Shown: piece by piece, positions 6,620 to 57,249 of the stretch
Position numbering within the stretch: position 1 is the stretch's first letter
Layout of the letters: every line of letters begins with the position of its first letter
Assembly: GCA_035627515.1 (NCBI GenBank)
Contig: DASPLQ010000012.1
Coordinates: forward strand, 1,199,705-1,263,704
DNA: 64,000 bases
Reading direction: 5' to 3'
Origin: Vitreimonas sp.
GTDB lineage: Bacteria; Patescibacteriota; Microgenomatia; UBA1400; PJMF01
Notes under the pieces: model-generated
The model's database searches: none
What the model was told of the DNA's origin: nothing
The model's input: the letters and a program-made list of their open reading frames with translations, nothing else
Made by a program: the position numbers and the translations under genes

Positions 6620-6628
6620 AGGATAACA

Positions 6629-30223: not shown

Positions 30224-30227
30224 AAAT

Positions 30228-37518: not shown

Positions 37519-38931
37519 CTATAAGCGGTGCCATTTTTGTAAATGATGATCAATATTGCCATCAAAAAATTGACGCAAATAAACGTCTTTAGTTTGTCTT
37601 CCTAGAAGATAGGGGAGTTGACGAGAAGCCACATACATTCGGGGCATAAGATTGATGAAGATAGCCGCCGCGATTAACGTCAATAACGGGAGTTTCCAAG
37701 CCGGTTTTTTATCAAAAAGCAGTTTAATATACCAAAAGACACATATACCCAAAACAATAAAGCCTGACAACGCATAGCGAGTCGATAAAGGGGGCACAAA
37801 CCACCAAATGAGCCACTGAGCTAAACCAAAAATCCACAACGTGGTCAGTTTACGATCTGCCTTCCTTTGCCAGCAGTCATAGCCTGCTAGAGGCAAGGCC
37901 AGAAATAAAACTGACACATAATCACGACTAAAAAGTGTCAACTGTATCAAAGACCAAGGGAAAGAGATAATACGCTCACTCAGATAACTAACACCGCTAC
38001 TGCCACCACTAATCTCATCTAAACGGCCTAAATGCAGTAGAGCAGACAAAAAAGGTGTGCCGGCATACCAAAAGGTGTAAAGATAAAAAGGTGCAACCAC
38101 TAAGGCACTCGTTACCAAGAACACACATACCTTCTGCCACCGCTTAGTCATTAACCACACGAGGAGTAACATCACTGGCCACAACAACACTGAAAATAAT
38201 TTAGTCGCCAGTGAGGCCCCAAAAAATAAACCACTCCACATCGTGTGCTGATGTCTAGAACTCTGATGATCCACCGCTTGTAACAGCAACCACAAGCTCG
38301 CTACTTCCCACATCGCCTTTGCCACATCCACATAGAAACTACTTGCTTGCCACGTCATAACCTGATAGGTAGAGATGAAAAGCACAGTCGCTAAAGCCCA
38401 GTGACGAGGCAGCACATGGCGTGCCAATGCATAACTCACTGCCATACAACTCAACGCTAAACCATACGCCACTACTTTCGCTCCCATATCACCAGCAGCT
38501 TGATAGCCTAATAAAAACAACACATCGGAAAACAGAGGATTAAGTGATTGGTAATAATCAGGAAGGTATATGATGCGACCTAAAGTCAGGAACTGCTCCA
38601 CGATTGGCAAGTGATACCAAACAGCATCGAACCCGGTTTCCGGCATCAATACTCCCAAACCATGCATCAGCCATATGAGGCCAAACACAGTCACCATTAG
38701 TTTTTCAATTACCTTCAGACCAGAAAAGCTGATTACCACTTGCCAACCTAATCGCATGAGAAAAAAACTGGGAAAAAGTAAAATCAGGTAAAGTGGCAAA
38801 AACAAACCACCTGCCCACCCCACCAGTGTGGTAATCACAGCACAACTAAACCAACTGACCATTAACCAAAAAAGGTGCGTTTTATTTTTTTGCTCTGGTT
38901 TGGGAACTTGAAGCGGTTTCTTTAGTACCAT
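37519..38931 (-). CDS. GT39/GT83-like (PMT/ArnT-type) membrane glycosyltransferase family protein
   Basis: Multi-TM protein with ArnT/PMT-like topology. Start uncertain: ATG 38931 overlaps the RND gene 3' end; alternative ATG 38862; the track ORF begins at 38997. Confidence 0.4.
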   Translation of the reverse strand: MVLKKPLQVPKPEQKNKTHLFWLMVSWFSCAVITTLVGWAGGLFLPLYLILLFPSFFLMRLGWQVVISFSGLKVIEKLMVTVFGLIWLMHGLGVLMPETGFDAVWYHLPIVEQFLTLGRIIYLPDYYQSLNPLFSDVLFLLGYQAAGDMGAKVVAYGLALSCMAVSYALARHVLPRHWALATVLFISTYQVMTWQASSFYVDVAKAMWEVASLWLLLQAVDHQSSRHQHTMWSGLFFGASLATKLFSVLLWPVMLLLVWLMTKRWQKVCVFLVTSALVVAPFYLYTFWYAGTPFLSALLHLGRLDEISGGSSGVSYLSERIISFPWSLIQLTLFSRDYVSVLFLALPLAGYDCWQRKADRKLTTLWIFGLAQWLIWWFVPPLSTRYALSGFIVLGICVFWYIKLLFDKKPAWKLPLLTLIAAAIFINLMPRMYVASRQLPYLLGRQTKDVYLRQFFDGNIDHHLQKWHRL

Positions 38932-41900
38932 ACACCTCAATATACATGGCAGGCAACAAGAACAAAATAAGCAAGCCGGATACAGAAAGACCAGCAATAA
39001 TTGCCCCGCCTAGCCCTCTCCACAAAGGATCTGAAATCGTGACCGGCAACAACCCCACCACGGATGAAAAAGAACTCAGAAAAATAGCTTCTAACCGTGA
39101 GGATGAAGCATCCACGACCGCATCTTTAGTGCTAAAACCATACTCTAAGTTTAGGTTAATTTTCTCTGTCATCATCAGGGCATTGTTAACCACAATTCCA
39201 AATAGTGACAACACCCCAATTAAAGCCGGAAATGACAATGGGATTTGGAACAAGGTAAAGTTAATAGCCACCCCAATCAATGCTAACGGAATCACGATCA
39301 CTACTAAAATGGCTTTGCGAAATGATTTTAGCTGTAACACCATGGTCACTAAAATCATAAAAAATGAGATGCCCATCGCTTGGATAATTGATTGGACTGA
39401 TTTCTCATTTTCTTCATTAGCACCACCTACGTCCCAAGTATAACCAGCTGGCATATCATAGTCCTTCACTTTTTCTTGGAACTGGCGCAAGACTTCAGGA
39501 GAGGTTGTACCTTGAACATCAGCGGTAACTCTCACTACTCGTCGACCATCTTCGCGTTCGATCGAAAGAGGACTGTTTTCAAGTCGCAAAGTAGCCACTT
39601 CTGAAACTGTGTAGGACCCCAGAGCGCTCGGTAGGCTTAAATTAGTCAGCAGGTCGAGGTTCTGTGACGGTGTTTCTAATTGCAAGGTAATGTCACGATC
39701 TTCATTATCAATGATAGTATCAGTGGCTTCACTGCCAGAGAGAGCAGTCCGCAGCCATCCACCCACTTGTTGGGCACTCAAACCTCGCTCTGCCAACTCT
39801 TGAGGGTTGAGCTCGATGGTAATTTGGCCAGCGGATAATTTAAGTGAGTTATCAATATTAATAGTCCCCTGAATTTCACCTAACGTCTTTTGAAAATCTG
39901 CCGCAATCCTTTCCAATTCCTCTAATGACTCACCTTTCAAATTAACCTGAAAAGCTGAGCCCGCCGGCGGACCACCACTCAGTTCAACTACCGTAATTTT
40001 TGCTTCTCTGACTTCATTTAACATGGATCGCAACTCAGCGGTGATCGCTAATGAGTCACGGCCACGATCTTCTAACTCGGGCAATAAAACGGTCATCATC
40101 GCCAAATTACTACTACCACCTCCACCACCAAAGCTATTTAAAAAATTACTGCCCGTTGAACTTTGAATTGATTTAACTTCTGGCAACTGCAACACTATCG
40201 CTTCTACTTTTTCCAATACTTGTTCAGTCTCAGTGACTGTCCAACCGGCTGGCCCTTCGATGTTAATATAGAAGGTCTTGTTATCAGTCTTAGGGAAAAA
40301 CTCGGTTTTTAATAAACCAGTAAAAGCAAAGACTAAACTTACCACTAATAAAGCTGCAACTAACGCGAATACGGCCAATCGCCAGCGTCGGTAATCAACT
40401 ATTTTTGTGACACCACGGCGGTAGGCCTTGATCATTGGGTCTAGCGTCACTAAACTATTTTCTAATAAGCCTCTTTGTTTCACCCATAGCCAAGTGCGAT
40501 GCATAGCAGATGACCGGTTTCCTACCCGGTTAAATCCCGTCCGCACCACTGCTATCACTTTCTGACGAGCGATAAATAGCGCACAGATAAACAGTAAATA
40601 AACTAAAATCACCGGGATAGCTAATAACGAAGTACTCACCACGCTCCAGACAAACAGTAATGATAACAGTAACCCAAGGATCATCAGTAAAGCTTTCACC
40701 CGAGCCGGGATATGAGCTCCACGTAAGACAATGTTTAAAGGTAGGTTTAGCAAGGTCGCAATCGCGGTGGAAGATAACAATGTGGCTGTGACCACCAGTG
40801 GAATGGGTTTAATGAACTCGCCAATAATTCCGCTTGCTAACAACAGCGGCACAAATGACCACACCACCGTGATCGTGCCCACCCAAATGGGAATAAAAAA
40901 GTCTCTAAATACCATTAAACCAGTTTCAATTGAATTAAATTTTCGACCATAAGCCGTGGTCGATTGAGCCATCACAATGGCATCATCACCAATTAAACTC
41001 AACGCTAACAAGAGGGAAAACAACGATAAAAAGTTGAGAGATAAACCCATGATGTTCATGGCCACAAAAGTGCACATAATGACTAAGGGAATTGATAATG
41101 CTGCCACAGTGGCTTGGCGCAAACCGAGGAAAATCGTCAATACTAAAAACATCAAGCCAATGGAATTGACAAAGTTGCGTTGTAAATCCGCAAAGGTCCG
41201 GGTAATTTCTTCAGTAAAATTTAAGATGTCCACAGCTTTAACTTGTGGATATTTTTGGAGCGTTTCGTTAATGACTTGACGGGATTTTTGTTCAGCCGCA
41301 GTGATAGTTTCGTTTTCAGCTTTGAAAATAGCTACCTGAACTGCGTTTTGTCGAGAATTATTTTTTTCAGTATAACTTTGGAAACGTGTAATTTCTTTGG
41401 TTCGCAAATAGACTTGCGCCACTTGGCCAAGCTGAATCGTTTTCCCTTCCACTATGAGCGGTAAGGTCCGAATCTTGTCGAGACTGTCTAACTCACTATT
41501 GAGTGATAAGGTGTACTCTAGGCCGCCAATAGTAACATTGCCAGTGGGAAAGGTCAGATTATTGCCGCGAAGGGCTTGGGCGACTGCTTGCTCAGAGAGG
41601 TGGTAGGTTCGTAAACTACTTGGATCCAATGCCACGACTACTTCTTCTTCCTCAGCCCCAATTAAATCAGCACGACGAATGCCATTGACTTGTTCTAACT
41701 CATCCTTCAGTTCATCAGCCACCCGAGAAATAGTATATAAATCAACTTCACCGGTCAAAGCGATGGTTAAAAAGGGTTGGTCATTGACGTTAATTTTTTC
41801 CACCCGAGGTTCTGTTGCATCATCGGGAAGATCATCAATCAGCAAATCAATTTCTTCTTTAGTGGAACGGACGGCTTCTTCAGGATCCATTGAGCTCAAA

Positions 41901-42271
41901 AATTGAAACGTGACTACAGACACCCCTTGGGTGGAGCTGGAAACCACGTTATCTAAGTTGGGTAAATTTGGGGCAGCTTTTTCTAATTTCTGAGTTACTA
42001 ACTGCTCCACGTCACGAGGTGAAGCACCTGGTAAAGTAGTGATCACATTGACCGCCGGCAACACCACATCGGGATTTAATTCTCTGGGTAACTGCGCAAA
42101 GGAATACAAACCAAAGACCACAATGCCAATCATCATCAAAATTAACAAGCGTGGGTTGCGAAATAAAACTTCGATCCATTTCCCGCGCAGACTTTCATCA
42201 AAACGAAGTTTTTTAAGATACTCGGACTCAGCATCAATTTGAGGAGGTGGGGAAGATTTAGACTTAGCCAT
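38882..42271 (-). CDS. RND family efflux transporter permease (AcrB/HAE1-like)
   Basis: 1129 aa, 12-TM RND architecture with two large periplasmic loops. N-terminus RNPRLLILMMIGIVVFGLYSF. Confidence 0.85.
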   Translation of the reverse strand: MAKSKSSPPPQIDAESEYLKKLRFDESLRGKWIEVLFRNPRLLILMMIGIVVFGLYSFAQLPRELNPDVVLPAVNVITTLPGASPRDVEQLVTQKLEKAAPNLPNLDNVVSSSTQGVSVVTFQFLSSMDPEEAVRSTKEEIDLLIDDLPDDATEPRVEKINVNDQPFLTIALTGEVDLYTISRVADELKDELEQVNGIRRADLIGAEEEEVVVALDPSSLRTYHLSEQAVAQALRGNNLTFPTGNVTIGGLEYTLSLNSELDSLDKIRTLPLIVEGKTIQLGQVAQVYLRTKEITRFQSYTEKNNSRQNAVQVAIFKAENETITAAEQKSRQVINETLQKYPQVKAVDILNFTEEITRTFADLQRNFVNSIGLMFLVLTIFLGLRQATVAALSIPLVIMCTFVAMNIMGLSLNFLSLFSLLLALSLIGDDAIVMAQSTTAYGRKFNSIETGLMVFRDFFIPIWVGTITVVWSFVPLLLASGIIGEFIKPIPLVVTATLLSSTAIATLLNLPLNIVLRGAHIPARVKALLMILGLLLSLLFVWSVVSTSLLAIPVILVYLLFICALFIARQKVIAVVRTGFNRVGNRSSAMHRTWLWVKQRGLLENSLVTLDPMIKAYRRGVTKIVDYRRWRLAVFALVAALLVVSLVFAFTGLLKTEFFPKTDNKTFYINIEGPAGWTVTETEQVLEKVEAIVLQLPEVKSIQSSTGSNFLNSFGGGGGSSNLAMMTVLLPELEDRGRDSLAITAELRSMLNEVREAKITVVELSGGPPAGSAFQVNLKGESLEELERIAADFQKTLGEIQGTINIDNSLKLSAGQITIELNPQELAERGLSAQQVGGWLRTALSGSEATDTIIDNEDRDITLQLETPSQNLDLLTNLSLPSALGSYTVSEVATLRLENSPLSIEREDGRRVVRVTADVQGTTSPEVLRQFQEKVKDYDMPAGYTWDVGGANEENEKSVQSIIQAMGISFFMILVTMVLQLKSFRKAILVVIVIPLALIGVAINFTLFQIPLSFPALIGVLSLFGIVVNNALMMTEKINLNLEYGFSTKDAVVDASSSRLEAIFLSSFSSVVGLLPVTISDPLWRGLGGAIIAGLSVSGLLILFLLPAMYIEVYGTKETASSSQTRAKK

Positions 42272-44280: not shown

Positions 44281-44354
<74 letters not shown>

Positions 44355-44369
44355 CAAAATATTGGCATT

Positions 44370-45233
44370 CTACTTTGGCCAGGGAAGTGTCCAAACATAC
44401 TTTTGCTTATTTCTTGGCCCTCCCCGAGATTTCTTTTTATTTGACGGCTGTTTACTTTCTTCCCATCTCTTGATTTCAAGTTCAGAAAAGGCTAAAGCAT
44501 GAAATCTCGTACTTTGGGTCATCAGGAACACACCAAGCTTTACTTCATCATTTGACGAGTAATAAATTTTTCTTCGGTCTAGATCAATGCGCACCGGCAC
44601 AGGTGAATCAGCAAAGAGGTCGTTGTAATGAATATACTTCCATTTGCTCCGAGAGGTTCGAGTTGTTGAATTCTGATACCAGATTCTAATTGGAATTCTC
44701 AGCTCATTGAGTAAAGACGTCACTAATAGTTGTCGCTTGGGAGAAGGAATTTTCTTAACTTCAGTATTACGATTAGCTGCTTTCTCCAGTGGTAAGCTAC
44801 TCCAGCTCAATCGTTCAGCTAAAACAGGCTGACTGCGTTCTATGCCTTTCAGCAACCGTTTAATAACTTCATCAAAATGAGTCGTAACGCTGTCTCGAGC
44901 TCTTTTTATTTCAGGGCCACTTGGTTGAGGTCGAGAAGGAACATTGCTCGGTTTTAAGTATTGTTGGTAAATTTCCCATTTACTAAGCTCAGTCAAAAAA
45001 TAATGGAGCACCATTTTAAAACCTTCATCTAGCTTTTGGCCATGCTCATCCTCTTCTATTGCCTCACTTAATTCGGTGAACACATTTAACTGAATTGCCA
45101 AAAGAAAAAGTTGAGCCACGTCTCTATTAACGCCTAAGTCTCTAAACCGCACCTCAAAGCTTGTGAGCGTGCCATCTAAGTCTTGGATGCCTAATGCCGT
45201 CAAATACTCGGTTAAATAAAGATTATCTTCCAT
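44370..45233 (-). CDS. hypothetical protein (orphan, between two tRNA genes)
   Basis: 287 aa ORF with no recognisable motifs. Basic C-terminus (KKKSRGGPRNKQK). Confidence 0.45.
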   Translation of the reverse strand: MEDNLYLTEYLTALGIQDLDGTLTSFEVRFRDLGVNRDVAQLFLLAIQLNVFTELSEAIEEDEHGQKLDEGFKMVLHYFLTELSKWEIYQQYLKPSNVPSRPQPSGPEIKRARDSVTTHFDEVIKRLLKGIERSQPVLAERLSWSSLPLEKAANRNTEVKKIPSPKRQLLVTSLLNELRIPIRIWYQNSTTRTSRSKWKYIHYNDLFADSPVPVRIDLDRRKIYYSSNDEVKLGVFLMTQSTRFHALAFSELEIKRWEESKQPSNKKKSRGGPRNKQKYVWTLPWPK

Positions 45234-45298
45234 TGTCAGCTATTATATCTCCTGTGTGGCCAAAGACAGGGGAAACTGTTATAATTTCAGGTCTGAAT

Positions 45299-45373
45299 GG
45301 TGGTATTAGCTCAGTTGGTTAGAGCGCTGCTCTGTGAAAGCAGAGGTCGCCGGTTCGAGTCCGGTATACCACC
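45299..45373 (+). tRNA. tRNA-His (anticodon GTG) with genomically encoded G-1
   Basis: Acceptor GTGGTAT/ATACCAC. Extra 5' G pairs with discriminator C. Anticodon stem-loop CTGCT-CTGTGAA-AGCAG. T-arm GCCGGTTCGAGTCCGGT. TATAAT at 45278-83. Confidence 0.85.
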
Positions 45374-45455
45374 CAAGTGAATCTTCCTCAAATAATCCTT
45401 CTAGATATTGTTAGTTGGGGTCATTTTTGATTATATAAATTGCTACAATGTCTAC

Positions 45456-45815
45456 ATGCCACAAAAAAAGCTAACTCTTAAATTTAAATTACTGCTGATC
45501 TTTGTTTTTATATCATTAATCTATTACAGCTTTACCTCCGCTACTATTTTATATCTGATCTTTAAAGAACACTCTTTTTACATGTTATTAAATGAAATTG
45601 TCCTTTTTATATTACTTTGGACAGTTGCTCAAATTGGGCTAGTTACAGTACAAAAGTGGGGGGTTTATTTAGCAGCAGTACTCTCAATTATAGTATTGGC
45701 CCAAACATTAATGATGGGGTTAGGCATTGGGAATATTCATGGATTTAGTTTACATTTACTCTTTTTTGTCTTGATATTGCTGAACAAGGACGAGTATTTT
45801 TCTCAGTCAACTTAA
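45456..45815 (+). CDS. small multi-pass membrane protein, hypothetical (AT-rich island)
   Basis: Probable start MPQKK at 45456 (the track ORF starts at 45408). 4 hydrophobic helices. Very AT-rich DNA. Confidence 0.4.
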   Translation: MPQKKLTLKFKLLLIFVFISLIYYSFTSATILYLIFKEHSFYMLLNEIVLFILLWTVAQIGLVTVQKWGVYLAAVLSIIVLAQTLMMGLGIGNIHGFSLHLLFFVLILLNKDEYFSQST

Positions 45816-45824
45816 AAGCCAAAT

Positions 45825-46295
45825 ATGGTAAAAATCAGATGTACTGATAACTTTGGCAAGCCACACGAATTCAATGAAAGTGAATATATTGATCGGGAAT
45901 CAGTCCATGGCATTCTCTTACTAAAAGATTCAGTCTTATTAGTTGAAGACAGACACTCAAAATTTTGGGACTTTCCAGGTGGAGGAGTAGAGAAAGATGA
46001 AAATTTAATTCAGGCCTTAAAAAGGGAATTTATTGAGGAAACAGGAATAACTGATATCTCGATTGGAGTAGAAGTAGAAAACTCAATAGATTATTTTTTC
46101 AATGTTCATTCCCAGGAACCTTGGCGATCTCACCGCCACTTCTATTTAGTTAAAGCGAACATACATGAATTAAAGACTCAAACAAATGCTGAAGATATTT
46201 GTGAAGCAAAGCTTATTCCCGTTGCAGAACTCTTAGGATATAAAATTAAAGATAAAGCAAAAGAACTAATTATTAACCTAACAAAGCAGGCTTAA
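45825..46295 (+). CDS. Nudix hydrolase
   Basis: 156 aa. Nudix box GGGVEKDENLIQALKREFIEETGI. Confidence 0.7.
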   Translation: MVKIRCTDNFGKPHEFNESEYIDRESVHGILLLKDSVLLVEDRHSKFWDFPGGGVEKDENLIQALKREFIEETGITDISIGVEVENSIDYFFNVHSQEPWRSHRHFYLVKANIHELKTQTNAEDICEAKLIPVAELLGYKIKDKAKELIINLTKQA

Positions 46296-46367
46296 AACAG
46301 GTTCGAACGTCACCTAGCCAGTGATCTAACCATTTCTATAATTACATTAATTTGATACTATCAAACT

Positions 46368-46793
46368 ATGATTAAAATAAATACTTGGATCAACTTTAAC
46401 GGTAATGCTGAAGAAGCATTTAATTTTTACAAATCAGTTTTCGGTGGAGAGTTTACAAAGGTGGTGCGTTTCAAAGATATCGCAAGTGATGAATTCCCCG
46501 TAGCTGAAAAAGAAGAAAATAAAATAATGTATATTGCTTTACCTATTAGCAACACTGCTATGTTGATCGCCAATGATGTGCCGGAAGTTTTAGGTCAAGT
46601 AAATGAGCGTGAAAATCGCAGTAAAATTATGGTGAGTGCAGAAAGTAAAGAAGAGGCGGAAAGATTATTTCATGGCCTTTCAGCCGATGGGGAAGTCGAA
46701 GGACCTATGGGAAACAGTCCATGGGGCTCATATGCCGGTATGTTTAGAGATAAATACGGTATTGAGTGGATAATTGAATTTTCTCCTAATTAA
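46368..46793 (+). CDS. VOC/glyoxalase-fold protein (PhnB-like)
   Basis: 141 aa. MIKINTWINFNGNAEEAFNFYKSVFGG... resembles PhnB/COG2764. Confidence 0.6.
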   Translation: MIKINTWINFNGNAEEAFNFYKSVFGGEFTKVVRFKDIASDEFPVAEKEENKIMYIALPISNTAMLIANDVPEVLGQVNERENRSKIMVSAESKEEAERLFHGLSADGEVEGPMGNSPWGSYAGMFRDKYGIEWIIEFSPN

Positions 46794-46829
46794 TAGTTTT
46801 TCACATTTTTTTATACGAGGGAAAATTAA

Positions 46830-47141
46830 GTGATAAGAAAAGAAACTCTTATTCCCTTTATAGGAGTTTTAATCTTCTTTGCGTTTGTTTCTTGGTTTGT
46901 TTATGGGCACTGGGTTGAACTCCATTGTATAAGTTATGGGCATAACCATAGGAGCCCTAACAACGAATTAATCCCGGCAACAGAAGAAGAAAAGAAGCGT
47001 TTTGGGCTAAGCGAAACAGCCACTATTTCACTGTCATTACACTATCAGGATCAATGCCAAAGAGCTCTTTGGTTTAATGTTTTTAACCAATCTCCATCTG
47101 CCACGTTCACTAGTTTAAAAGCATATTTACTTGATAACTAA
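46830..47141 (+). CDS. small membrane-anchored hypothetical protein
   Basis: 103 aa, N-terminal TM. Overlaps the next gene by 11 nt. Confidence 0.35.
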   Translation: MIRKETLIPFIGVLIFFAFVSWFVYGHWVELHCISYGHNHRSPNNELIPATEEEKKRFGLSETATISLSLHYQDQCQRALWFNVFNQSPSATFTSLKAYLLDN

Positions 47142-48372
47142 AATAAATTCTCTTATGAGCAATAAGCTAGAATCGCTACGCCAACACTCACAAATTGAGA
47201 CAGACAATCATGCTCTAATTCCTGAACAAGTGTTGAAGCTTATTAATACAGAACTATTACATGCTCCAATCGCCTCACACATTCTCAGAGAACATACAAT
47301 TACAACTGACTTATATGAAAAGAGATTTAAAGGGATCTGTGGGTGGATATTTCAAGAATTTGAACCAGAAGTAAACGAGTTTATTAAACCAGAAATATTT
47401 ATAGTCTTTTTTGGAATTGCCAACCAATTAGTTGAATTAACTCTTGACCCAAAGATAACTGAAGTATCTCAAAATCAAATACTTTTTTTATTAGAAGTCT
47501 TGGAGGAAATGACTACAGAAAAAGCAGATGTGGGAAAAATAGCTGAAGTTGAAAAATTAGTACAAGAGTTAGAAATATTAAAAGATGAAACCTTAACACA
47601 ACAGGTTATAGATTCATTAAAGGCAAATAAACAATTCCGAGATTTTAAAAAGAATATAGGAATTAGAATCACAGGGGAAACTCCTTTTAGTATTTGTGTT
47701 ATTAGTAGTCATGATTGGCCACAATCACGATTTATACCTAATAATTCCACAGCGTTCGTCATAGGCTCCACCTACTATATTAATGCCCTTCAAGCCCAAA
47801 AAATAATAGCCGGTGATAAAACAGAAATATCTGGAGCAATACATGAATACACACATCTTCAAAGACCTTTTAACCGAGGAAAATCTAATAACTTAAACTA
47901 TCTATTTTATGAATTAATTGCGCACTCATATGGTGGAGGAGAACACTATGATGTTTTGGCTTTGTGGTTTTTCCTGAGAGTTGTAACAAAAAATGAAATA
48001 GTCAGAAAAATTGATAAATATGTGATGACTAATGAGCAAGGCAAAATACTTCCTTGGCTAGCACATAAGGTTGGTTATAACTATCTTCTCTATGCTGCAG
48101 TAAAAAAGCCTCAGTATTATGAGTCAAACCAAAATAATAACTTTGCACACGTACCTGAATTAGAAAGAGGATATAAAGGTACTATTCAACTTATCCAAAT
48201 GATGTATGAGGAATATTTAAAAATTAATGGCTATGATAAAGAGCAAGAAATTATCACTTGGTTGAAAGAAGATAAGAATGATTACTTAAGAAAAGGCTGC
48301 AATGTCATTGACGTTGTTTTGGGTAAAGGTTTGCCAGATCCCTTAAATGAAATCATTGTAGAACCATGGTGA
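47131..48372 (+). CDS. hypothetical protein with HExxH zincin-like motif (HEYTHLQ)
   Basis: 413 aa. Single HExxH (AIHEYTHLQRP) in the C-terminal half. Low-GC gene. Confidence 0.45.
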   Translation: MITKINSLMSNKLESLRQHSQIETDNHALIPEQVLKLINTELLHAPIASHILREHTITTDLYEKRFKGICGWIFQEFEPEVNEFIKPEIFIVFFGIANQLVELTLDPKITEVSQNQILFLLEVLEEMTTEKADVGKIAEVEKLVQELEILKDETLTQQVIDSLKANKQFRDFKKNIGIRITGETPFSICVISSHDWPQSRFIPNNSTAFVIGSTYYINALQAQKIIAGDKTEISGAIHEYTHLQRPFNRGKSNNLNYLFYELIAHSYGGGEHYDVLALWFFLRVVTKNEIVRKIDKYVMTNEQGKILPWLAHKVGYNYLLYAAVKKPQYYESNQNNNFAHVPELERGYKGTIQLIQMMYEEYLKINGYDKEQEIITWLKEDKNDYLRKGCNVIDVVLGKGLPDPLNEIIVEPW

Positions 48373-48379
48373 AAACTGT

Positions 48380-48946
48380 TCATAAAAACTTTTTCCCATT
48401 TTCCAACATCTGAATCATTTTCTCTATCCGTCGTTTGCGTGTTTCTTCCTTTTTAGCACGTTGCAGCTGATAGGCGATGTAGAAAGTATTAGTTTTGTTT
48501 AAGGTCTTAAAAAACTCAGCAGCTTTTTTATTGTGCTTTAAGGCAATTAAAAAATCTTCGGGGATTTTAGCATTGGCTGGAGATTCATAAGCTTGAGCCC
48601 ATCTACCATCTGCTTTTGCCGCTTCTACCGCCGCTATCCCAGCTGGCATCATTTTGCCCTCCCGTGTCAATCTTTCGATGTGTTGGGTATTGATCTTCGA
48701 CCACACACTTTTGGCTCTACGAGGTGTAAATCTTTGTGCATAAGAAAGGTCGTCATATTTATTGACAATGCCATCAATCCATCCAAAGCATAACGCCTCA
48801 TCTAAGGCCTGATCATAATTCATACCGGTTTTACCAGAGGCTTTTTTCCAAAAACCAACCCAAATTTCAGTTTCGTTATCATGGTGGGCTGACAGCCATT
48901 TGCGAAACTCGGCCGGTGTCTTAAAGAAAAGGGGTTTAATGTTCAT
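48380..48946 (-). CDS. YdeI/OmpD-associated family protein
   Basis: 188 aa with family-typical segments. Confidence 0.55.
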   Translation of the reverse strand: MNIKPLFFKTPAEFRKWLSAHHDNETEIWVGFWKKASGKTGMNYDQALDEALCFGWIDGIVNKYDDLSYAQRFTPRRAKSVWSKINTQHIERLTREGKMMPAGIAAVEAAKADGRWAQAYESPANAKIPEDFLIALKHNKKAAEFFKTLNKTNTFYIAYQLQRAKKEETRKRRIEKMIQMLENGKKFL

Positions 48947-48992
48947 ATAAAGACTTCGATTATTTTACCTCAAATCCTGATAAAATAACTCT

Positions 48993-49382
48993 ATGCACAC
49001 AGATATTCAAGCCTACCACAACACACTTACTGATGAAGATAAAGCTATATGTGAATTATTAGCTAAAACCATTAATGCCAGTCTTCCCGAAGCAGAGAGT
49101 AAAATGTGGCACGCTCGTCCTGTTTGGTTTTTGGAGGGTAATCCGGTTGTAGGCTATGCCAAACTGAAGCATAACATCCAGTTATTGTTTTGGAGTGGTC
49201 AATCTTTTAATGAACCCAACTTACAAACTGAAGGTACCTTCAAAGCCGCTCAAGCTCGCTACACTTCTATTGATCAAATAAACGTCGATGATTTAAAACG
49301 ATGGTTGGAAAAAGCTAGAGATATTCAATGGGACTATAAAAATATCGTCAAACGCAAAGGTGAGTTAATTAGGCTAAAATAA
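48993..49382 (+). CDS. DUF1801 (YdhG-like) domain protein
   Basis: 129 aa. Confidence 0.55.
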   Translation: MHTDIQAYHNTLTDEDKAICELLAKTINASLPEAESKMWHARPVWFLEGNPVVGYAKLKHNIQLLFWSGQSFNEPNLQTEGTFKAAQARYTSIDQINVDDLKRWLEKARDIQWDYKNIVKRKGELIRLK

Positions 49383-49400
49383 TTTTTATTTTCGGAGGCT

Positions 49401-50081
49401 TTACAGCACCTTAAATAACAGGCCTAAGTAAATGTAGGGGAGTTGTAAGTACATCACTACTAACAGCAGCCAATCTGGCCACATCCAAGTGTTATTGAGA
49501 GCAATCCACTTCATTTCTTTTGAAGGCTCTTCTGGTATTAACAAGCTGTTCTCGGAAATGTGCCAACTTTCAGCTCTGCTGGCCTTCTGAATATACAACG
49601 CTTTTTGACCATTTCCTTTATCATAAATACTCACAAACGATTCATACTCAAACGGGTATTTCTGACCCACCAGCGAACTATAGTCAGTAACTTGCTCACT
49701 ACTCAACTTTAACTCACCAAAAATATACTCAGCATCCTGGCTAGAAAAATGACACTTATTTGAGTCCTTAATTTCTGCCACAGGCGCTTTGGTAAAAACT
49801 GCACAACCATTAGATATTAAGTCTTGTTTACCATCACCATCGACATCATTGAATAAATATTGAGGATCAGGGTTAAAAGGACCCGCAAAAGAGTGGATGG
49901 GTACTCTTTTTTGCTGAAAAATAAGCCAATTGTCAGCTAGGGGCTCACCAAACACATACCAGTTACCACCCAAATAAAAGAGGGTAATAAATAATCCCAA
50001 AGCTAAGTAAATACCCCATAAAGAAAAGATAATCTTCACGAATTTATTTTCTAGCTTTTTAGTGGCCATGATGGAGCTCAT
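49401..50081 (-). CDS. membrane-anchored hypothetical protein with FG-GAP/VCBS-like DVDGDGKQD motif
   Basis: 226 aa. N- and C-terminal hydrophobic segments. Calcium-binding-like loop NDVDGDGKQDLI. Confidence 0.4.
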   Translation of the reverse strand: MSSIMATKKLENKFVKIIFSLWGIYLALGLFITLFYLGGNWYVFGEPLADNWLIFQQKRVPIHSFAGPFNPDPQYLFNDVDGDGKQDLISNGCAVFTKAPVAEIKDSNKCHFSSQDAEYIFGELKLSSEQVTDYSSLVGQKYPFEYESFVSIYDKGNGQKALYIQKASRAESWHISENSLLIPEEPSKEMKWIALNNTWMWPDWLLLVVMYLQLPYIYLGLLFKVL

Positions 50082-50096
50082 TATATCTAAGTATGG

Positions 50097-50351
50097 TTGT
50101 ATAATCCAATTACTATGAAAACCTCCTCACCGTTCCAGTTTTCTCCCCAAGAAATTGAAGATATCAAGGACGCACTCAAAACATATTTCTCTGATGAATT
50201 AGACACTGAGATCAGCAACATGCAAGCTGATCTATTTATCGAATTTTTAAACACCAAAATTGGAAAATATTACTACAATGTTGGGATTGTGAATGCGATT
50301 AAAGAAATGAAACAAAAAACTGATGATTTAGTGTTACTGATTAAAGAGTAG
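50097..50351 (+). CDS. DUF2164-like small protein
   Basis: 84 aa. Confidence 0.45.
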   Translation: MYNPITMKTSSPFQFSPQEIEDIKDALKTYFSDELDTEISNMQADLFIEFLNTKIGKYYYNVGIVNAIKEMKQKTDDLVLLIKE

Positions 50352-50360
50352 AATTAAATC

Positions 50361-50948
50361 ATGACCAACACTCATCCTCTTGCCTCCACCCGACGTCGAA
50401 TGTTTGCAGCCGTGATTGACGTAGTGATTGTGATGTTTTTCTCCCTTCTCTTTTGTATTCCTTTTGGCGGCAGCTTTTCCATGAATGTTGGTTATAGTTT
50501 AGGCGTTTGGGAATTTTCTTATTACAATGGCCATATCTTCCTCCTCACCTTTTTAGGCTATTTTATGATGAGTGATGTCATGGATGGCCGCAGTATTGGC
50601 AAGAAGTTATTAGGTTTAGACATTGTCAGTACCATCAAAGCTAAGCTTGATCGTAATCGCTTAATCATGCGCACCCTGGTGAAGCTCGGTGATTTCTTTT
50701 TCTTAGGTGTGCCATTGATTCTCTTAACTGGTAAAAGTATGGGGGACATGGCGTCCAAAACCCAAGTGGTTTATACCAAAGGCACCAAGCCCTCAACTAT
50801 AAAAGGGTGGAAAGCCACCCTCAAAAAGGGGCTTGGCCTTCTCTTTTTAGCGGTCGCCGTTTGGCTATGGTATGGAATTGTCATTCATATTCCTCAAATT
50901 TGGTCACTGTCACGTGCCGCCCAGAATACTTGGCAAGAGATGAACTAA
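50361..50948 (+). CDS. RDD family membrane protein
   Basis: 195 aa. Arg-Asp-Asp context (RRRMFAAVIDVVIV ... DGRSIGKKLLGLDIV) with 3 TM segments. Confidence 0.55.
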   Translation: MTNTHPLASTRRRMFAAVIDVVIVMFFSLLFCIPFGGSFSMNVGYSLGVWEFSYYNGHIFLLTFLGYFMMSDVMDGRSIGKKLLGLDIVSTIKAKLDRNRLIMRTLVKLGDFFFLGVPLILLTGKSMGDMASKTQVVYTKGTKPSTIKGWKATLKKGLGLLFLAVAVWLWYGIVIHIPQIWSLSRAAQNTWQEMN

Positions 50949-50951
50949 GCT

Positions 50952-51227
50952 ATGGCCACCAATGATTATCATCAGCTCTATTCTAAAGCGGACCCTTTGC
51001 TCCAAAATGACGTTACCGAAGCGGAGTTTGGGGAAATCTTAAACCAACTCAAAGAGCAGGCAAAAATTTCAAATCAGCAGGCTGCTGCGCCATATGAAGC
51101 TCGCTCGTGGATATTTACTAGGACCTTGGGTGAAACTCGTGGGGTAGCAAATCACACGTTTCCTTTTTCACTTACCTTTACTCGTCATGATGGCGAGTGG
51201 CGCTTTGCCGGCTTTCGGTCACCGTAG
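50952..51227 (+). CDS. hypothetical small protein
   Basis: 91 aa ORF in apparent operon with the RDD gene. Confidence 0.35.
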   Translation: MATNDYHQLYSKADPLLQNDVTEAEFGEILNQLKEQAKISNQQAAAPYEARSWIFTRTLGETRGVANHTFPFSLTFTRHDGEWRFAGFRSP

Positions 51228-51239
51228 TCAGATTACCAC

Positions 51240-51668
51240 ATGACCATCTACAATCCCAACCATCAAGAAGAAAAAGCTTTTTTTCGGATTGGTCAAAAAG
51301 CCATTATCTTAAATGAATATGGTGAGATGTTATTGTTGCTGCGGTCACAAAAAAGTGGCAATGGTGGCCAGTGGTCACTTGCTGGAGGTGGATTAGAAGC
51401 TAACGAAGATCCTTACCAAGGCTTAGAGCGGGAAATCAGAGAAGAAACCCAACTAGCAGTCACTCATATTAAGCCTTTCACCTTATTTTCGTATCAGAGT
51501 GATAAAGGTGAATCAATTGTGATCATTGGCTATAGTTGTATGGTCAAAAAAGGTGAAGTCATTTTAAATTGGGAACATGATCAATTTAAATGGGTGAAGA
51601 GGGTAGAGGCATTCACAATGAAACTAGGATCACACGCTCGCTTTTTGATTGAACGATTTGAGTCCTGA
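51240..51668 (+). CDS. Nudix hydrolase
   Basis: 142 aa. Nudix box GGGLEANEDPYQGLEREIREETQL. Confidence 0.7.
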   Translation: MTIYNPNHQEEKAFFRIGQKAIILNEYGEMLLLLRSQKSGNGGQWSLAGGGLEANEDPYQGLEREIREETQLAVTHIKPFTLFSYQSDKGESIVIIGYSCMVKKGEVILNWEHDQFKWVKRVEAFTMKLGSHARFLIERFES

Positions 51669-51670
51669 CT

Positions 51671-52171
51671 CTAACTTTTCTTCCCCAAGTGCTTTTTCTT
51701 AAGCAGTTGGTATTCAGGATCATTTTTAGCTAATAAATACTTTTCATAAAACATACTTGCTGAAACTGCTTTGTCATTTGTGGCCCAATCTTTGTTTTGG
51801 GGTAAAATTCTTTGTCTAGCTTTTCTTTGGTCTGTGGGTAGTTTTTCTTTTTGTGGGTTACTGACATATTTTCTGCCCGAAGTATGATTGGCATATCGTC
51901 TGGAGCGGGTATACCCCATCTGCAAAAATTTTCGTGCCATATCCATACCTACAAAATCCTGATGGCTCTTGTACTTTAAGAATAATTTATAAATTGCTAG
52001 TGAAGACTTTTCAGCAATTTCGGGCGTCTTAAACCGCCAATGAGGCAAGATCTCAGATTTATATGGCTCAACTAGTAACACTCCCTGCTCACCTTTGCCT
52101 ACCATATAGAGATCGGGCTGTTCACGAAAATTAATTTTTTTGAAATCTAAATCATAGTTAAATTTTGACAC
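51671..52171 (-). CDS. DUF4385-like protein
   Basis: 166 aa. INFREQPDLYMVGKGEQGVLLVEPYKSEILPHWRFKT ... FVGMDMARKFLQMGYTRSRRY. Confidence 0.5.
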   Translation of the reverse strand: MSKFNYDLDFKKINFREQPDLYMVGKGEQGVLLVEPYKSEILPHWRFKTPEIAEKSSLAIYKLFLKYKSHQDFVGMDMARKFLQMGYTRSRRYANHTSGRKYVSNPQKEKLPTDQRKARQRILPQNKDWATNDKAVSASMFYEKYLLAKNDPEYQLLKKKHLGKKS

Positions 52172-52255
52172 AGCACATTTTAATCATTGAATGACAAAAT
52201 GCTGTAAGAAATAGCCCAAAAATGCAGCAAAATGCTGCTGTTTTTTTGTATTTAA

Positions 52256-53698
52256 GTGCTCACCACGTATAATCAGCGAGTAATGGCTCATTTTCTTAAA
52301 CGCCTTACCATTCGTCTTAATCACTCTTTAGATGCTGCTTTTACCACTAAAGCTAAAAAAGTGGGCATAAGCAAATCCAAACTCTTGCGGCAGTGGCTAC
52401 AAGAAGACCTTTCCACTCTCCAGCTATTTTCCACAGTTCCAATGACTAAAACTGTCAGTTATTCGTGTGCTTTAAGCGATGATGATTTCACCCGTCTCTC
52501 TGAGATAGCAGATCGCTTTCATCTTTCTCATACTAAATTGATTCAAGTGCTGATTGAAAATAAAACCCAGGTTAAACCCCTGCCTTCTGCTGCCAGCTCG
52601 TCTCCCTTAAATGTATCGTTACTAAGTGAACTGCTTAACCAAGGACATCTCAGAGAGGTTACACAACTCTATACTGGCTATGTTGAAGGTTACTCAGTTG
52701 AATCATTATTTTCATTGCTAGAAGCCAATTTTGAGATGGGAAATGGAGAAGCATCACATCAATTGTTGAACCTGCTACACGAAAAAATTTCTCCTCACCA
52801 TCAGACACACTCATTATTATTGACAACATATAAAGCGTATTATTTGATGAGTTACTATCGTGATTTGAAAAAAAGCACTCAACTCCTTGACCAAGTTGAG
52901 CCATTTATTGCTCATATCCAAGATCGACAGTTTCTGGGTATTTATTACCGGATTAAAGGCCTACTCGCTTACTATAGTGACGATATCCTCAATGGCATTC
53001 AGTTTCTTGATCGCTCAATTGATTATTTAGATCCCATTTATTATCAGCGGCAATTTTTATACAGTGCGGTGGAGCTCCTCAAAATTTATACTGGGCAATG
53101 TAACTGGGAAATGGTGAAACTCTTTCATATCAAAATTCAATCTCTTCTCGATCGTCATCCAAATGTTTTTTTCACTTCATGGTTCAATCGCCATAAAACT
53201 CTCTATTATTTAAGTCAGCGTAATTATCAAACTGCCTTAGATCTCATTAATGAGTCAGTTCGGTGTGATCAAATTTCTGGTTCCAGATGGGCCTTATCCG
53301 TTACCTACCGGGAAAAAGCTAAAATTTTATTAGCACTGAATCGTAAAGCTGAAGCAATACAGTATTTTCAAAATTCAAGCTGGATCGATACTAGCTTTAG
53401 ACCTCATGTGCATTTTAGCCGTTCGAAATTATATTCCAATTTCATGAGTACTGAGTTGCAAAACGAAAGTGCTTTTAAGTGCTTAGAAAATTTAACAGTG
53501 TCTAACTCACAAAGTGTTGAACCTAGCTTAGGTAGTTACGTTTATTACACTGCTCAATTTTTACACGGGAACACTAAAAAAGAGCGCCTCACAGGTGAAC
53601 AGGGTTTAAAGTCATTAACAGCACATGGTGCGTATTCGCTCATCAAAACTGCTGCCAAAGAAACACTCACCAAACACCAGTTCGAAACCGCACTTTAA
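52256..53698 (+). CDS. tandem ribbon-helix-helix (CopG-like) domains fused to TPR-like helical domain; putative transcription regulator
   Basis: 480 aa. Two RHH-like units (RLTIRLNHSLDAAFTTKAKKVGISKSKLLRQWL; KTVSYSCALSDDDFTRLSEIADRFHLSHTKLIQVLI). -35/-10 TTGTAT-16-TATAAT upstream. Confidence 0.4.
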   Translation: MLTTYNQRVMAHFLKRLTIRLNHSLDAAFTTKAKKVGISKSKLLRQWLQEDLSTLQLFSTVPMTKTVSYSCALSDDDFTRLSEIADRFHLSHTKLIQVLIENKTQVKPLPSAASSSPLNVSLLSELLNQGHLREVTQLYTGYVEGYSVESLFSLLEANFEMGNGEASHQLLNLLHEKISPHHQTHSLLLTTYKAYYLMSYYRDLKKSTQLLDQVEPFIAHIQDRQFLGIYYRIKGLLAYYSDDILNGIQFLDRSIDYLDPIYYQRQFLYSAVELLKIYTGQCNWEMVKLFHIKIQSLLDRHPNVFFTSWFNRHKTLYYLSQRNYQTALDLINESVRCDQISGSRWALSVTYREKAKILLALNRKAEAIQYFQNSSWIDTSFRPHVHFSRSKLYSNFMSTELQNESAFKCLENLTVSNSQSVEPSLGSYVYYTAQFLHGNTKKERLTGEQGLKSLTAHGAYSLIKTAAKETLTKHQFETAL

Positions 53699-53847
53699 AT
53701 ACATACATCTGAATCAAATTTAGCCTGGTTTCATTCGCCCTATTGACACTTCTGAGTAATAACTCTTTAATTGAAGTATTACGTAAAGATCCTGCCCGAT
53801 CGCCGACCATTTTTGGTGACGTGGCAGAACCAGAAAAAGGGAGGCAT

Positions 53848-53991
53848 ATGCCTGCAGCTAAAAAGAAGAGCGCTGTTAAATCAGCCAAGAAAACTGTTAA
53901 GAAAGTAGTCAAAAAGGTAGTTAAAAAAGCTAAAACTGCCGTCAAAAAAGTGGCTAAAAAAACCACTAAAAAGACTGCTAAAAAGAAATAA
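53848..53991 (+). CDS. lysine-rich histone H1-like small basic protein
   Basis: 47 aa from ATG 53848 after RBS AAAGGGAGG: MPAAKKKSAVKSAKKTVKKVVKKVVKKAKTAVKKVAKKTTKKTAKKK. The track ORF from 53743 has no RBS. Confidence 0.5.
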   Translation: MPAAKKKSAVKSAKKTVKKVVKKVVKKAKTAVKKVAKKTTKKTAKKK

Positions 53992-54011
53992 TTTAACTTT
54001 TAGTTCGTCTT

Positions 54012-54042
54012 AAAAACGGTGTCATCTGACACCGTTTTTTTT
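54012..54042. terminator. bidirectional rho-independent terminator
   Basis: AAAAACGGTGTCATCTGACACCGTTTTTTTT between convergent genes. Confidence 0.8.
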
Positions 54043-54055
54043 ATACTTAGTCTAT

Positions 54056-54682
54056 TCATTCGGGAAGAATAATATCGTGAGTAGCATAATAAACCTCACC
54101 ATTATCAGTGGTCTGCTTATCTAGTTTTACAATATATGCTTCATCAATTTGCTGATTACGAGCCGCCGGCAAAAACATTTGTGAGGTAATAATTTCTCGC
54201 TGACCATCCCAGACTTTAAAATGAATATGCGGTGGGCGATAAGCGGTGCCTTGACCATATCCCAAGGGGATCACCGTTTCAAAGTAATAACTGCCATCAC
54301 TTTGAGTAGTAACCTGACCGCGGTACCATTCATCTTCATAGTTACCAGACTCATTGGCTTGCCAAATATCAATTACAACGCTGCCAGCTGGTACCTGACA
54401 ATCGCTTTTCAACACCTTACCACTGACAATGAGTTTTTGACCGGTATTTACCTCTGGAGCAATATTCGTTCTAAATGGTGAATTTGCTTGGTAATACGGG
54501 CCACCACCATCCACAAAGGTGGGTATACAGTTAGGATTAAGGCTGGGCGTTGGTAAAGCTGAATCAGTCGGGATGGGAGAAGAGGAAACAGTCAGATTTG
54601 TCTGCAAACGTCGGTTGTTTAGAGAGATCAGTATGCCACTAATTACCAGTAATGTGATCAGGGTGATGTGCTTGGCATTCAT
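54056..54682 (-). CDS. secreted intradiol-dioxygenase-fold protein
   Basis: 208 aa. Signal/TM anchor. RPPHIHFKV matches the intradiol ring-cleavage dioxygenase His motif. Confidence 0.4.
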   Translation of the reverse strand: MNAKHITLITLLVISGILISLNNRRLQTNLTVSSSPIPTDSALPTPSLNPNCIPTFVDGGGPYYQANSPFRTNIAPEVNTGQKLIVSGKVLKSDCQVPAGSVVIDIWQANESGNYEDEWYRGQVTTQSDGSYYFETVIPLGYGQGTAYRPPHIHFKVWDGQREIITSQMFLPAARNQQIDEAYIVKLDKQTTDNGEVYYATHDIILPE

Positions 54683-54705
54683 GCCCTTTATAATACACCA
54701 AAGCT

Positions 54706-55872
54706 ATGGTAAGAAAATCTCGAAAGTTATTGATGGGAATCACGATTGTGGCAGTGGTGGGTGTGATCATAGGCAGTTGGCTGGGCCTGCTCTATGCCTA
54801 CTATGGTCACCAAACCTTTTTCTTTTTAGTCAAAGCTCCTCCTCGAACGATTGTTGAGTACTCCAAAAACATAGTCAGTGCGCCCGTTAGTGCTCCTGAG
54901 CCTAACTCCACTCAAACAACTCCTGATACCACCGCACCACCTGTCCCAACCTCACATACCATTCCTACCATGAGTCATATGTACCAAAAACTTAATAATT
55001 GTGGTCCTAGTTCGGTAGCCATGGCAGCCAGTAGTTATGACATTACCTTTGATCAATTTGCCGCGGCAGAAGTGCTAAAAGGCAACGACAAAGACAAAAA
55101 CGTCTCACCAACTGAGCTAGTGGCTTTTCTGTCTACTCAACATTTATCGGCTATTCACCGTGTCAACGGCACCCCAGCCCAAATTGAAGCACTAGTAGCT
55201 CAGGGCATTCCTGTTATCGTCGAACAATGGTTGGAAAAAAGAGGCACCGGCGAGTTAGTGGGACATTATCGGGTCGTAAGAGGTTACAACCGTCAGCGCC
55301 AACTCTTTATCACTAATGATTCATTTAATGGCCCCAACTTCACCATTCCCTATGCCCAGTTTGAAGAATGGTGGCGACCATTTAACCGAACTTACATTCC
55401 CGTTTATCGACCTGACCAAGCAGAAACCGTGCGCACTATTTTAGGCTCTGATTGGGAAGTGGCAGCTAATTGGCAGCGGGCTAGCCAGCAAGCCCAACAA
55501 GATATTCAAAACCACAACGATGGCTATGCCTACTTTAATGCAGGCATTACTGCTGTGGCATTAGAAAAATATCCTGAAGCCGTAGCCGCCTTTAATAAAG
55601 CCCTCACTTTTAGTTTTCCGGAGCATTTTTTGTGGTATCAATTTGATTTATTCGAGGCCTACTTCCAAGTAGGGGAGTATGACAAAGTTTTGGAATTAAC
55701 AGACCACTTACTGAAAGAGGCGGGTGAGGTAGAAGAAGCTCGGTATTATCGCGGGCTGGTTTTTGAGCACCAAGGTGAGATTGAGAAAGCTAAAGCTGAA
55801 GCTCAAAAAGCAGTCACTGCCAATCCTCGTTACCAACCTGCCCAAGACTTACTTACGCGTTTGGCTTCCTAA
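54706..55872 (+). CDS. membrane-anchored C39-like peptidase domain protein with C-terminal TPR repeats
   Basis: 388 aa. N-terminal TM. Papain-like NNCGPSSVAMA (catalytic Cys context). TPR-like C-terminus. Confidence 0.4.
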   Translation: MVRKSRKLLMGITIVAVVGVIIGSWLGLLYAYYGHQTFFFLVKAPPRTIVEYSKNIVSAPVSAPEPNSTQTTPDTTAPPVPTSHTIPTMSHMYQKLNNCGPSSVAMAASSYDITFDQFAAAEVLKGNDKDKNVSPTELVAFLSTQHLSAIHRVNGTPAQIEALVAQGIPVIVEQWLEKRGTGELVGHYRVVRGYNRQRQLFITNDSFNGPNFTIPYAQFEEWWRPFNRTYIPVYRPDQAETVRTILGSDWEVAANWQRASQQAQQDIQNHNDGYAYFNAGITAVALEKYPEAVAAFNKALTFSFPEHFLWYQFDLFEAYFQVGEYDKVLELTDHLLKEAGEVEEARYYRGLVFEHQGEIEKAKAEAQKAVTANPRYQPAQDLLTRLAS

Positions 55873-57217: not shown

Positions 57218-57249
57218 ATTCCTATTGTAACCTACTGCAATAGGGATCC

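Follow-up and report, generated by a model that had tools for sequence, protein, structure and literature searches.

We analyzed a 64-kb window of DNA (64,000 nucleotides of contig DASPLQ010000012.1, labeled Vitreimonas sp.), in which an AT-rich accessory islet of about 3.0 kb, containing five genes, is located directly 3′ of tRNA-His (positions 45400-48375). We infer that this block is of foreign origin. In our estimate, with a probability of roughly 55-60%, it is an old horizontal acquisition from a lower-GC source. It does not look like a coherent system; its genes read as a mixed bag whose members act individually. The last gene of the block encodes a protein of 405 amino acids (aa), which carries an HExxH motif and is a putative metallohydrolase of the zincin/gluzincin type.

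Base composition and boundaries of the block

The GC content of the block is 33.6%, versus 42.2% in the rest of the window. When the GC fraction was calculated in windows of 500 nucleotides (nt), values of 0.31-0.37 were obtained between about 45.25 and 48.5 kb, versus 0.40-0.44 before this region. Non-overlapping comparison windows of the same size (n = 19) had a mean GC content of 42.5%, a standard deviation (SD) of 1.6 and a lowest value of 39.4%. The AT-rich block is placed 5.4 SD under these other 3-kb windows. With a 3-kb window sliding over the 64 kb, the minimum of GC content was found at the position beginning at 45501. For raw tetranucleotides, too, the block gave the largest distance in the window (0.337 vs 0.191 ± 0.034).

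The composition of the genes was then compared. The GC contents at the third codon positions (GC3) of the five block genes are, in order, 0.325, 0.261, 0.303, 0.317 and 0.246, and the window mean is 0.384 ± 0.049. Five of the six lowest GC3 values among the 59 genes belong to the five block genes, and the value of the 405-aa gene (0.246) is the lowest in the window. By our combinatorial estimate, the chance that a run of five genes falls entirely within the lowest six GC3 values is about 7e-5. The depletion of GC in the block genes was observed at codon positions 1, 2 and 3 alike. Since the genes for the Nudix and VOC proteins (GC3 of 0.26 and 0.30) are as AT-rich as the orphan genes, the low values point to a shared foreign history of the block and not to drift of orphan genes. 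An earlier note on this DNA had described a drop in GC content from about 45.4 to 48.4 kb. This drop was borne out by the windowed GC content, the raw tetranucleotides and GC3; composition along the window, as checked by windowed GC, is not uniform.

On the left, the block is bounded by the 3′ end of tRNA-His(GTG) (45300-45374, plus strand), which was identified by ARAGORN and by the Rfam tRNA model (70.4 bits). The decrease in GC content sets in directly downstream of this 3′ end. At the right edge lies a convergent gene of the YdeI/OmdA family (48380-48946, minus strand; PF13376, 3.5e-19), and only 7 nt lie between its stop codon and that of the 405-aa gene. The composition of the YdeI/OmdA gene is normal (GC 0.409, GC3 0.397). 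Both edges lie where the earlier note had put them, namely behind tRNA-His and next to a convergent YdeI-like gene. Edges as sharp as these, one at the 3′ end of a tRNA and the other at the stop codon of a convergent gene, together with the deviant composition, are a classic signature of acquired DNA. In addition, a Logan contig of 100.9 kb, which is an independent assembly, matches positions 44300-58372 of the window with full identity. Thus, the block is not an assembly chimera.

All five block genes are on the plus strand, with intergenic gaps of 9, 72, 36 and 13 nt. They encode a protein with about four transmembrane (TM) segments (119 aa, 45456-45815), a Nudix hydrolase (156 aa, 45825-46295), a PhnB/YjdN-type VOC protein (141 aa, 46368-46793), a signal-anchored product of a 103-aa open reading frame (ORF) (46830-47141) and the 405-aa HExxH protein (47155-48372).

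Horizontal acquisition or native variable zone

According to the reading that we prefer, the islet would have come from a lower-GC source by horizontal transfer, and its mobility genes would not have been retained. Several results weigh against this. No ORF or Pfam match for an integrase, recombinase or transposase was found in the region of 44.3-58 kb. A search for the 17-mer at the 3′ end of tRNA-His, allowing up to 3 mismatches, found no copy outside the tRNA, and no attachment site (att) repeat was detected. The Markov-normalised tetranucleotide correlation of the block (0.44 vs 0.54 ± 0.08, -1.4 SD) is not an outlier. On the right flank, the GC content is 36-41% up to about 54 kb, so that these 6 kb are also somewhat GC-poor, and on the left flank it is about 40-44%. 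The earlier note had given 43-47% for the flanks; the measured values are lower on both sides, and the contrast on the right-hand side is weaker than was stated there. Finally, relatives of the host were not retrieved: the AcrB peptides gave one spurious match of 23% identity in genome contigs and none in metagenome contigs. A degenerate tRNA-His pattern likewise gave 0 matches in metagenome contigs.

Because the right flank is GC-poor, the region could be a native variable zone. In that case, the block would be a fast-evolving and weakly constrained part of the host genome, in which AT-biased mutation and relaxed selection acted and lineage-specific orphans accumulated. The absence of mobility genes and att repeats agrees with this explanation, as does the normalised tetranucleotide signature, which is within the range of the window. 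The neighboring region of 48.4-54 kb is not only GC-poor but also rich in small accessory genes, and next to the block a 287-aa gene whose GC content is normal is likewise an orphan. Furthermore, a lone 266-aa gene at 30195-30995 (plus strand, GC3 0.262) is as AT-rich at the third codon positions as the block genes, and is the sole gene outside the block of which this is true. However, the GC content drops abruptly at both ends of the block and not gradually, and the low GC3 is common to the Nudix and VOC genes, which belong to conserved families. The concentration of five of the six lowest GC3 values in five consecutive genes and the boundary at a tRNA 3′ end, which is typical of insertions, also speak against a native origin. 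Taking both sides into account, we regard a native origin as rather unlikely and retain horizontal acquisition as the preferred explanation.

The block resembles tRNA-adjacent genomic islands in its position at a tRNA 3′ end, in its deviant GC content, GC3 and raw oligonucleotide composition, and in its cargo of small accessory and orphan genes. In contrast to such islands, it lacks an integrase and a repeat of the tRNA 3′ end, resembles neither phages nor plasmids, and is only 3 kb long. In phage, plasmid and viral collections, no relative of the 405-aa or the 103-aa protein was detected, nor any of the block DNA, except for an 87-nt match in the VOC gene. At 90% identity, the block proteins that were checked and the flanking enolase formed singleton clusters, with the exception of the 103-aa ORF. 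Its cluster has 2 members, and the second one, which is also on a 1.41-Mb contig, is most likely a start-codon variant.

As an attR candidate, an exact 10-nt copy of the tRNA-His 3′ end (TACCACCCAA) was found at 49964-49973, 4.6 kb downstream and inside a 226-aa ORF (49401-50081, minus strand). This copy is probably due to chance and was rejected. If it were taken as attR, the island would measure 4.6 kb and would include the YdeI and DUF1801 genes.

The earlier note had regarded the block as a horizontally acquired cassette and as the most foreign DNA in the window. Of the first statement, the horizontal acquisition agrees with the deviant composition and the sharp edges, whereas the cassette or module is not supported, and integrase, att, phage and plasmid similarity are all lacking. 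As for the second, no other part of the window deviates as strongly in GC content, raw tetranucleotides and GC3 as the block does, whereas its normalised tetranucleotide signature is ordinary.

The 4-TM, Nudix and VOC genes

The first gene of the block was found as an ORF and by gene calling. A hydropathy scan of its 119-aa product gave about four TM segments, which upholds the earlier description as a 4-TM protein. If TTG at 45408 is the start codon, the product is 135 aa in length. The 119-aa protein matched no Pfam, NCBIfam, PADLOC or PHROG family. When a concatenated query of the 287-aa, 4-TM and 103-aa proteins was searched, only the 287-aa part found itself, and the 4-TM and 103-aa parts failed to recover even themselves. 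Zero or one relative was detected for three of the five block products, a count in which the 4-TM and 103-aa proteins stand with queries that failed self-recovery.

The Nudix and VOC proteins, both correctly named in the earlier note, are by their profile matches ordinary members of their superfamilies. The 156-aa protein matched PF00293 (6.7e-17, 62 bits; cut-off 21), and a complete Nudix box (GGVEKDENLIQALKREFIEETGI, in agreement with GX5EX7REUXEEXGU) was read from its translation. The best match among the Nudix entries of the PDB was 3.7e-7. The protein is therefore like the Nudix (MutT/RppH-like) hydrolases in its PF00293 match and intact catalytic box, but differs in that it stays under all NCBIfam equivalog cut-offs.

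The 141-aa protein matched PF00903 (3.6e-11, 43.9 bits; cut-off 20.6) and PF06983 (5.9e-11, 43.4 bits; cut-off 24), so that its Pfam assignment (Glyoxalase/3-dmu-9_3-mt, about 4e-11) is PhnB-like. In the PDB, it matched 1u6l (7e-17) and the PhnB structure 3oms (9.5e-13). In these respects it is like the PhnB/YjdN VOC proteins; it differs in its score against the NCBIfam YjdN model (5.3e-8, 33 bits), which misses the equivalog cut-off of 122 bits. Its closest plasmid-borne relatives, with 41-46% identity, are from Chondrinema and Aureibacter. Since neither the Nudix nor the VOC protein reaches an NCBIfam equivalog cut-off, no substrate can be assigned to them.

The 405-aa protein and its HExxH motif

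The 405-aa protein (P0001) is acidic, with a net charge of -12, and has neither a TM segment nor a signal peptide; it is predicted to be soluble and cytoplasmic. A word-seeded search of 5.8 billion clusters with this protein recovered only the protein itself. An exhaustive phmmer search of 1.84 billion representative proteins gave one true relative, the 440-aa protein P0003 (E 1e-5). In a pairwise BLASTP comparison, the two proteins aligned over residues 22-401 with 23% identity (7e-14); overall, they are 23-26% identical. P0003 is likewise acidic and has no TM segment or signal peptide. Its genome has a GC content of about 37%, which we count in favor of the foreign origin of the block. A profile made from the two sequences detected no further members in the 5.8e9 clusters. 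By sequence comparison, the two proteins thus make up a two-member family. A further match of the phmmer search, P0002 (E 5e-12), was rejected as a tandem-repeat artefact.

The HExxH motif is located at residues 230-234 of the 405-aa protein (codons for H230-E231-Y232-T233-H234 at 47842-47856, plus strand). It lies in the best-conserved stretch of the alignment, IHEYTHLQR in the 405-aa protein and IHEYVHVQR in P0003, in which 7 of the 9 residues are identical. By chance, 0.03 and 0.016 occurrences of HExxH are expected in the two proteins. Furthermore, E253 (codon at 47911-47913), which is 19 residues past H234 and is a candidate third zinc ligand from the alignment with P0003, and A256 (+22) are invariant in both sequences, giving the arrangement HExxH-X18-ExxA. 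The earlier note had named the HExxH in AIHEYTHLQRP as the sole recognisable feature of the large protein, and this holds: the motif is present and no family was matched.

We consider it slightly more probable than its opposite that the 405-aa protein is a zincin/gluzincin-type metallohydrolase. Since no profile, PDB or fold match was obtained, this assignment is drawn from the conserved motif. The following results weigh against it. At E values up to 10, neither the 405-aa protein, nor its C-terminal half, nor P0003 matched any peptidase family of Pfam. No NCBIfam match was obtained for these sequences at E up to 0.1, and the 405-aa protein gave no PADLOC or PHROG match. In the PDB, no peptidase was matched by the single sequences, the profiles, the C-terminal profile or the 106-aa core, and only noise was obtained. 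The mean pLDDT of the AlphaFold2 models was 35 for the single sequence and 42 for the C-terminal half with the two-sequence alignment, so that the models were unusable. One of these low-confidence models places HExxH in a strand. A Foldseek search of the PDB with the better model gave nothing at E ≤0.001, and only random helical repeats appeared. Finally, conservation statistics from only two sequences are thin.

The 405-aa protein may be read in another way, as a mostly helical protein and no hydrolase, in which HExxH would bind metal for structural or regulatory purposes or would simply belong to a conserved helix surface. The lack of a match to peptidase profiles, PDB sequences and folds favors this reading, and the low-confidence models are largely helical and have no zincin-like core. 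In addition, 7 identical residues out of 9 in one window of two sequences are not extraordinary. However, HExxH is aligned in both proteins despite an overall identity of 23%, a Glu stands at +19, the canonical spacing, and a small residue at +22, and beta-like hydrophobic stretches, as read from the sequence, precede the motif as in zincins. We take the non-hydrolase reading as a real possibility, though not the expected one, and keep the putative metallohydrolase as the working assignment.

Metal binding, catalysis and cellular location of the 405-aa protein are predictions from its sequence. If the protein acts as a gluzincin-type metallohydrolase, H230, H234 and E253 would bind Zn2+, and E231 would activate a water molecule for attack on a peptide or amide bond. 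Ahead of the motif, stretches of alternating hydrophobic residues (FSICVIS and TAFVIGSTYYIN) may form the substrate-binding sheet. The motif is in the C-terminal region of about 240 aa, and the N-terminal region of about 165 aa, possibly helical according to a model of very low confidence, might confer substrate selection or autoinhibition.

Comparison with known metallopeptidases

The spacing HEXXH-X18-E is of the M1 type and corresponds to the gluzincin arrangement, with an ExxA(D)-like helix. The 405-aa protein is like the gluzincins (MEROPS clan MA(E): thermolysin M4, M1 and M9) in its HExxH, in the conserved Glu at +19 and in ExxA. It differs from them in that, apart from the motif, it is not similar to any sequence in Pfam, NCBIfam or the PDB. 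In addition, the M4 and M9 enzymes are secreted, whereas the 405-aa protein has no signal peptide. Membership in the M9 collagenases was considered and rejected, because no Pfam family, M9 included, was matched and because the Glu of M9 lies about 28 residues downstream, versus 19 in the 405-aa protein. The pentapeptides HEYTH of the 405-aa protein and HEYVH of P0003 are identical to zinc motifs of M9 collagenases (PMC11294657), which is a resemblance only.

The earlier note had named DUF4157, SprT and M78 for comparison. With these proteins, the 405-aa protein has in common the general layout of a beta-like segment, a short linker and an HExxH helix, and the lack of any other annotation. However, they are smaller than the 405-aa protein with its N-terminal domain of about 165 aa, and the third ligand of SprT is His, not Glu. 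Pfam has models for SprT-like, ImmA/IrrE (M78) and DUF4157 proteins, and the 405-aa protein, its C-terminal half and P0003 gave no match to them at E up to 10. An affinity to these families is thus without profile support.

The 103-aa ORF and the start codon of the 405-aa gene

Between the VOC and the 405-aa genes, the NCBI annotation appears to have no gene; the locus tags pass from VD999_06505 (VOC) to VD999_06510 (405-aa), and the 103-aa ORF has no NCBI accession. On the Logan contig the ORF was called, and the protein sets of JGI, ENA and Logan contain its product. The ORF starts with GTG, upstream of which there is a Shine-Dalgarno-like motif, GAGGGA. When the 361-nt interval between the VOC and 405-aa genes was shuffled, an ORF of at least 103 codons appeared in 41 of 20000 cases, and the GC content in the frame follows GC1>GC2>GC3. 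Because of these two results, the 103-aa ORF is probably a real gene, for a small membrane protein, which the NCBI annotation may have passed over. In the same interval, no RNA element was detected by Rfam, which matched only the two tRNAs.

The hydropathy scan gave a single TM segment at residues 4-29 of the 103-aa protein, an N-terminal signal-anchor helix, in agreement with the membrane anchor described earlier. The anchor is followed by a domain of about 75 aa with two Cys, which is probably extracytoplasmic, judging from the predicted topology. For the 103-aa protein, no Pfam, NCBIfam, PADLOC or PHROG family and no phage or plasmid match was found.

The large protein had been described as a 413-aa ORF that overlaps the 103-aa ORF by 11 nt. 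This form needs TTG at 47131 as the start codon, while two gene calls and P0003 favor ATG at 47155, which gives 405 aa. This ATG is used independently by the NCBI annotation and the Logan gene call, and the alignment with P0003 begins at Met1-Ser2 of the ATG-47155 form. The stop codon of the 103-aa ORF is at 47139-47141, leaving a gap of 13 nt. Since the genes are 13 nt apart and would overlap only with the alternative start codon, there is no support for translational coupling through an overlap. Elsewhere in the window, an overlap of 116 nt was noted between the TTG-started ORF of a PMT_2-like glycosyltransferase (37519-38997, minus strand) and the end of an AcrB-family gene (38882-42271, minus strand); it is probably a start-codon artefact of listing the longest ORFs.

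The question of a functional module

P0003 was found on four metagenomic contigs, where its gene is preceded by genes of 162, 71 and 124 aa, with ychF downstream. The 103-aa ORF showed no resemblance to the 162-aa and 124-aa neighbors (E 0.17 and 16; the 71-aa gene was outside this comparison), and there is no Nudix or VOC gene near P0003. On contig L003, the genes upstream of P0003 at 6001-7000 (162 aa, 71 aa and the start of 124 aa) have a GC fraction of 0.44-0.47, versus about 0.35-0.39 in the rest; this local anomaly in composition lies beside the homologue and does not include it. In PADLOC, the sole match of the block was that of the Nudix protein to the candidate PDC-S07, which concerns the Nudix box only; no model matched the 103-aa or the 405-aa protein. 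In PHROGs, nothing was obtained under E 0.06.

Two ideas of the earlier note are not supported by these results. One was that the pair of the 103-aa and large proteins might recur as a module; no relative of the 103-aa protein was found at the P0003 loci among the genes compared. The other was that the block looks like a cassette, perhaps for detoxification, effector or toxin-immunity functions, or defence, but the pair does not recur and the defence match is only a Nudix box. It is very improbable that the 103-aa and 405-aa genes are a two-gene toxin/effector-immunity or anti-phage module, with a metalloprotease effector and a small membrane partner or sensor. The two genes do lie side by side in the same orientation, 13 nt apart (the alternative TTG start would make them overlap), and both encode orphans in a compositionally foreign block, but the neighbors of P0003 are unlike the 103-aa ORF, neither protein has a PADLOC model or phage, plasmid or viral relatives, the predicted topologies put the small protein mostly outside the cell and the large one inside, and the 103-aa ORF was not called by NCBI.

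Genes adjacent to the block

Upstream of the block, a 287-aa orphan gene (44370-45233, minus strand) lies between tRNA-Arg(TCT) (44281-44355) and tRNA-His. Its GC fraction is normal (0.405), its product matched no Pfam, NCBIfam, PADLOC or PHROG family, and only the protein itself was recovered in the search of 5.8 billion clusters.

On the right of the block, a run of small accessory genes that are moderately GC-poor (36-41%) extends over 48380-54700. It consists of genes for YdeI/OmdA, DUF1801, a 226-aa two-TM orphan, DUF2164, RDD, a second Nudix protein, DUF4385, a 480-aa TPR protein and Dioxygenase_C. The second Nudix gene (51240-51668) has only the Nudix box in common with that of the block. 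A larger variable region may exist here, of which the AT-rich block would be the extreme.

Host genome and significance

The source is a 1.41-Mb contig with a GC content of about 42%, and the host genome is small. In the window, genes for a class I lysyl-tRNA synthetase (LysRS), an archaeal-type prolyl-tRNA synthetase, a type IV pilus ATPase and an RND pump with an HlyD-like adaptor are found. This gene content points to a genome of the Patescibacteria/Candidate Phyla Radiation (CPR) type, and the NCBI label "Vitreimonas sp.", which denotes an alphaproteobacterium, is probably wrong. Since orphan genes are common in CPR-type genomes, the orphans of the block are less surprising. The LysRS gene (4226-6619, plus strand; 797 aa) encodes a class I LysRS domain (PF01921, 9e-80) fused to a C-terminal B3_4 domain (PF03483, 2e-23). 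B3_4 is normally within the beta subunit of phenylalanyl-tRNA synthetase, and its fusion to LysRS is unusual.

Overall, the block is a routine, small and compositionally foreign islet beside a tRNA, and conceptually it changes nothing. Of wider interest is only the 405-aa protein; its family comprises two of about 15 billion predicted proteins and yet has a conserved zinc-hydrolase signature. As it stands, the protein is a low-priority lead. We put forward tentatively, and consider it doubtful at present, that the 405-aa protein and P0003 found a new and extremely rare family of gluzincin-type metallopeptidases, which would be confined to poorly sampled small-genome bacteria, would be spread horizontally and would have no detectable sequence link to described peptidases. 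If this is true, the 405-aa protein could be a cytoplasmic regulatory protease or, if it is exported non-classically, a factor acting on a host cell. If confirmed, it would extend the zincin clan by a new family and would illustrate how orphan enzymes move among bacteria that have small genomes and are possibly symbiotic.

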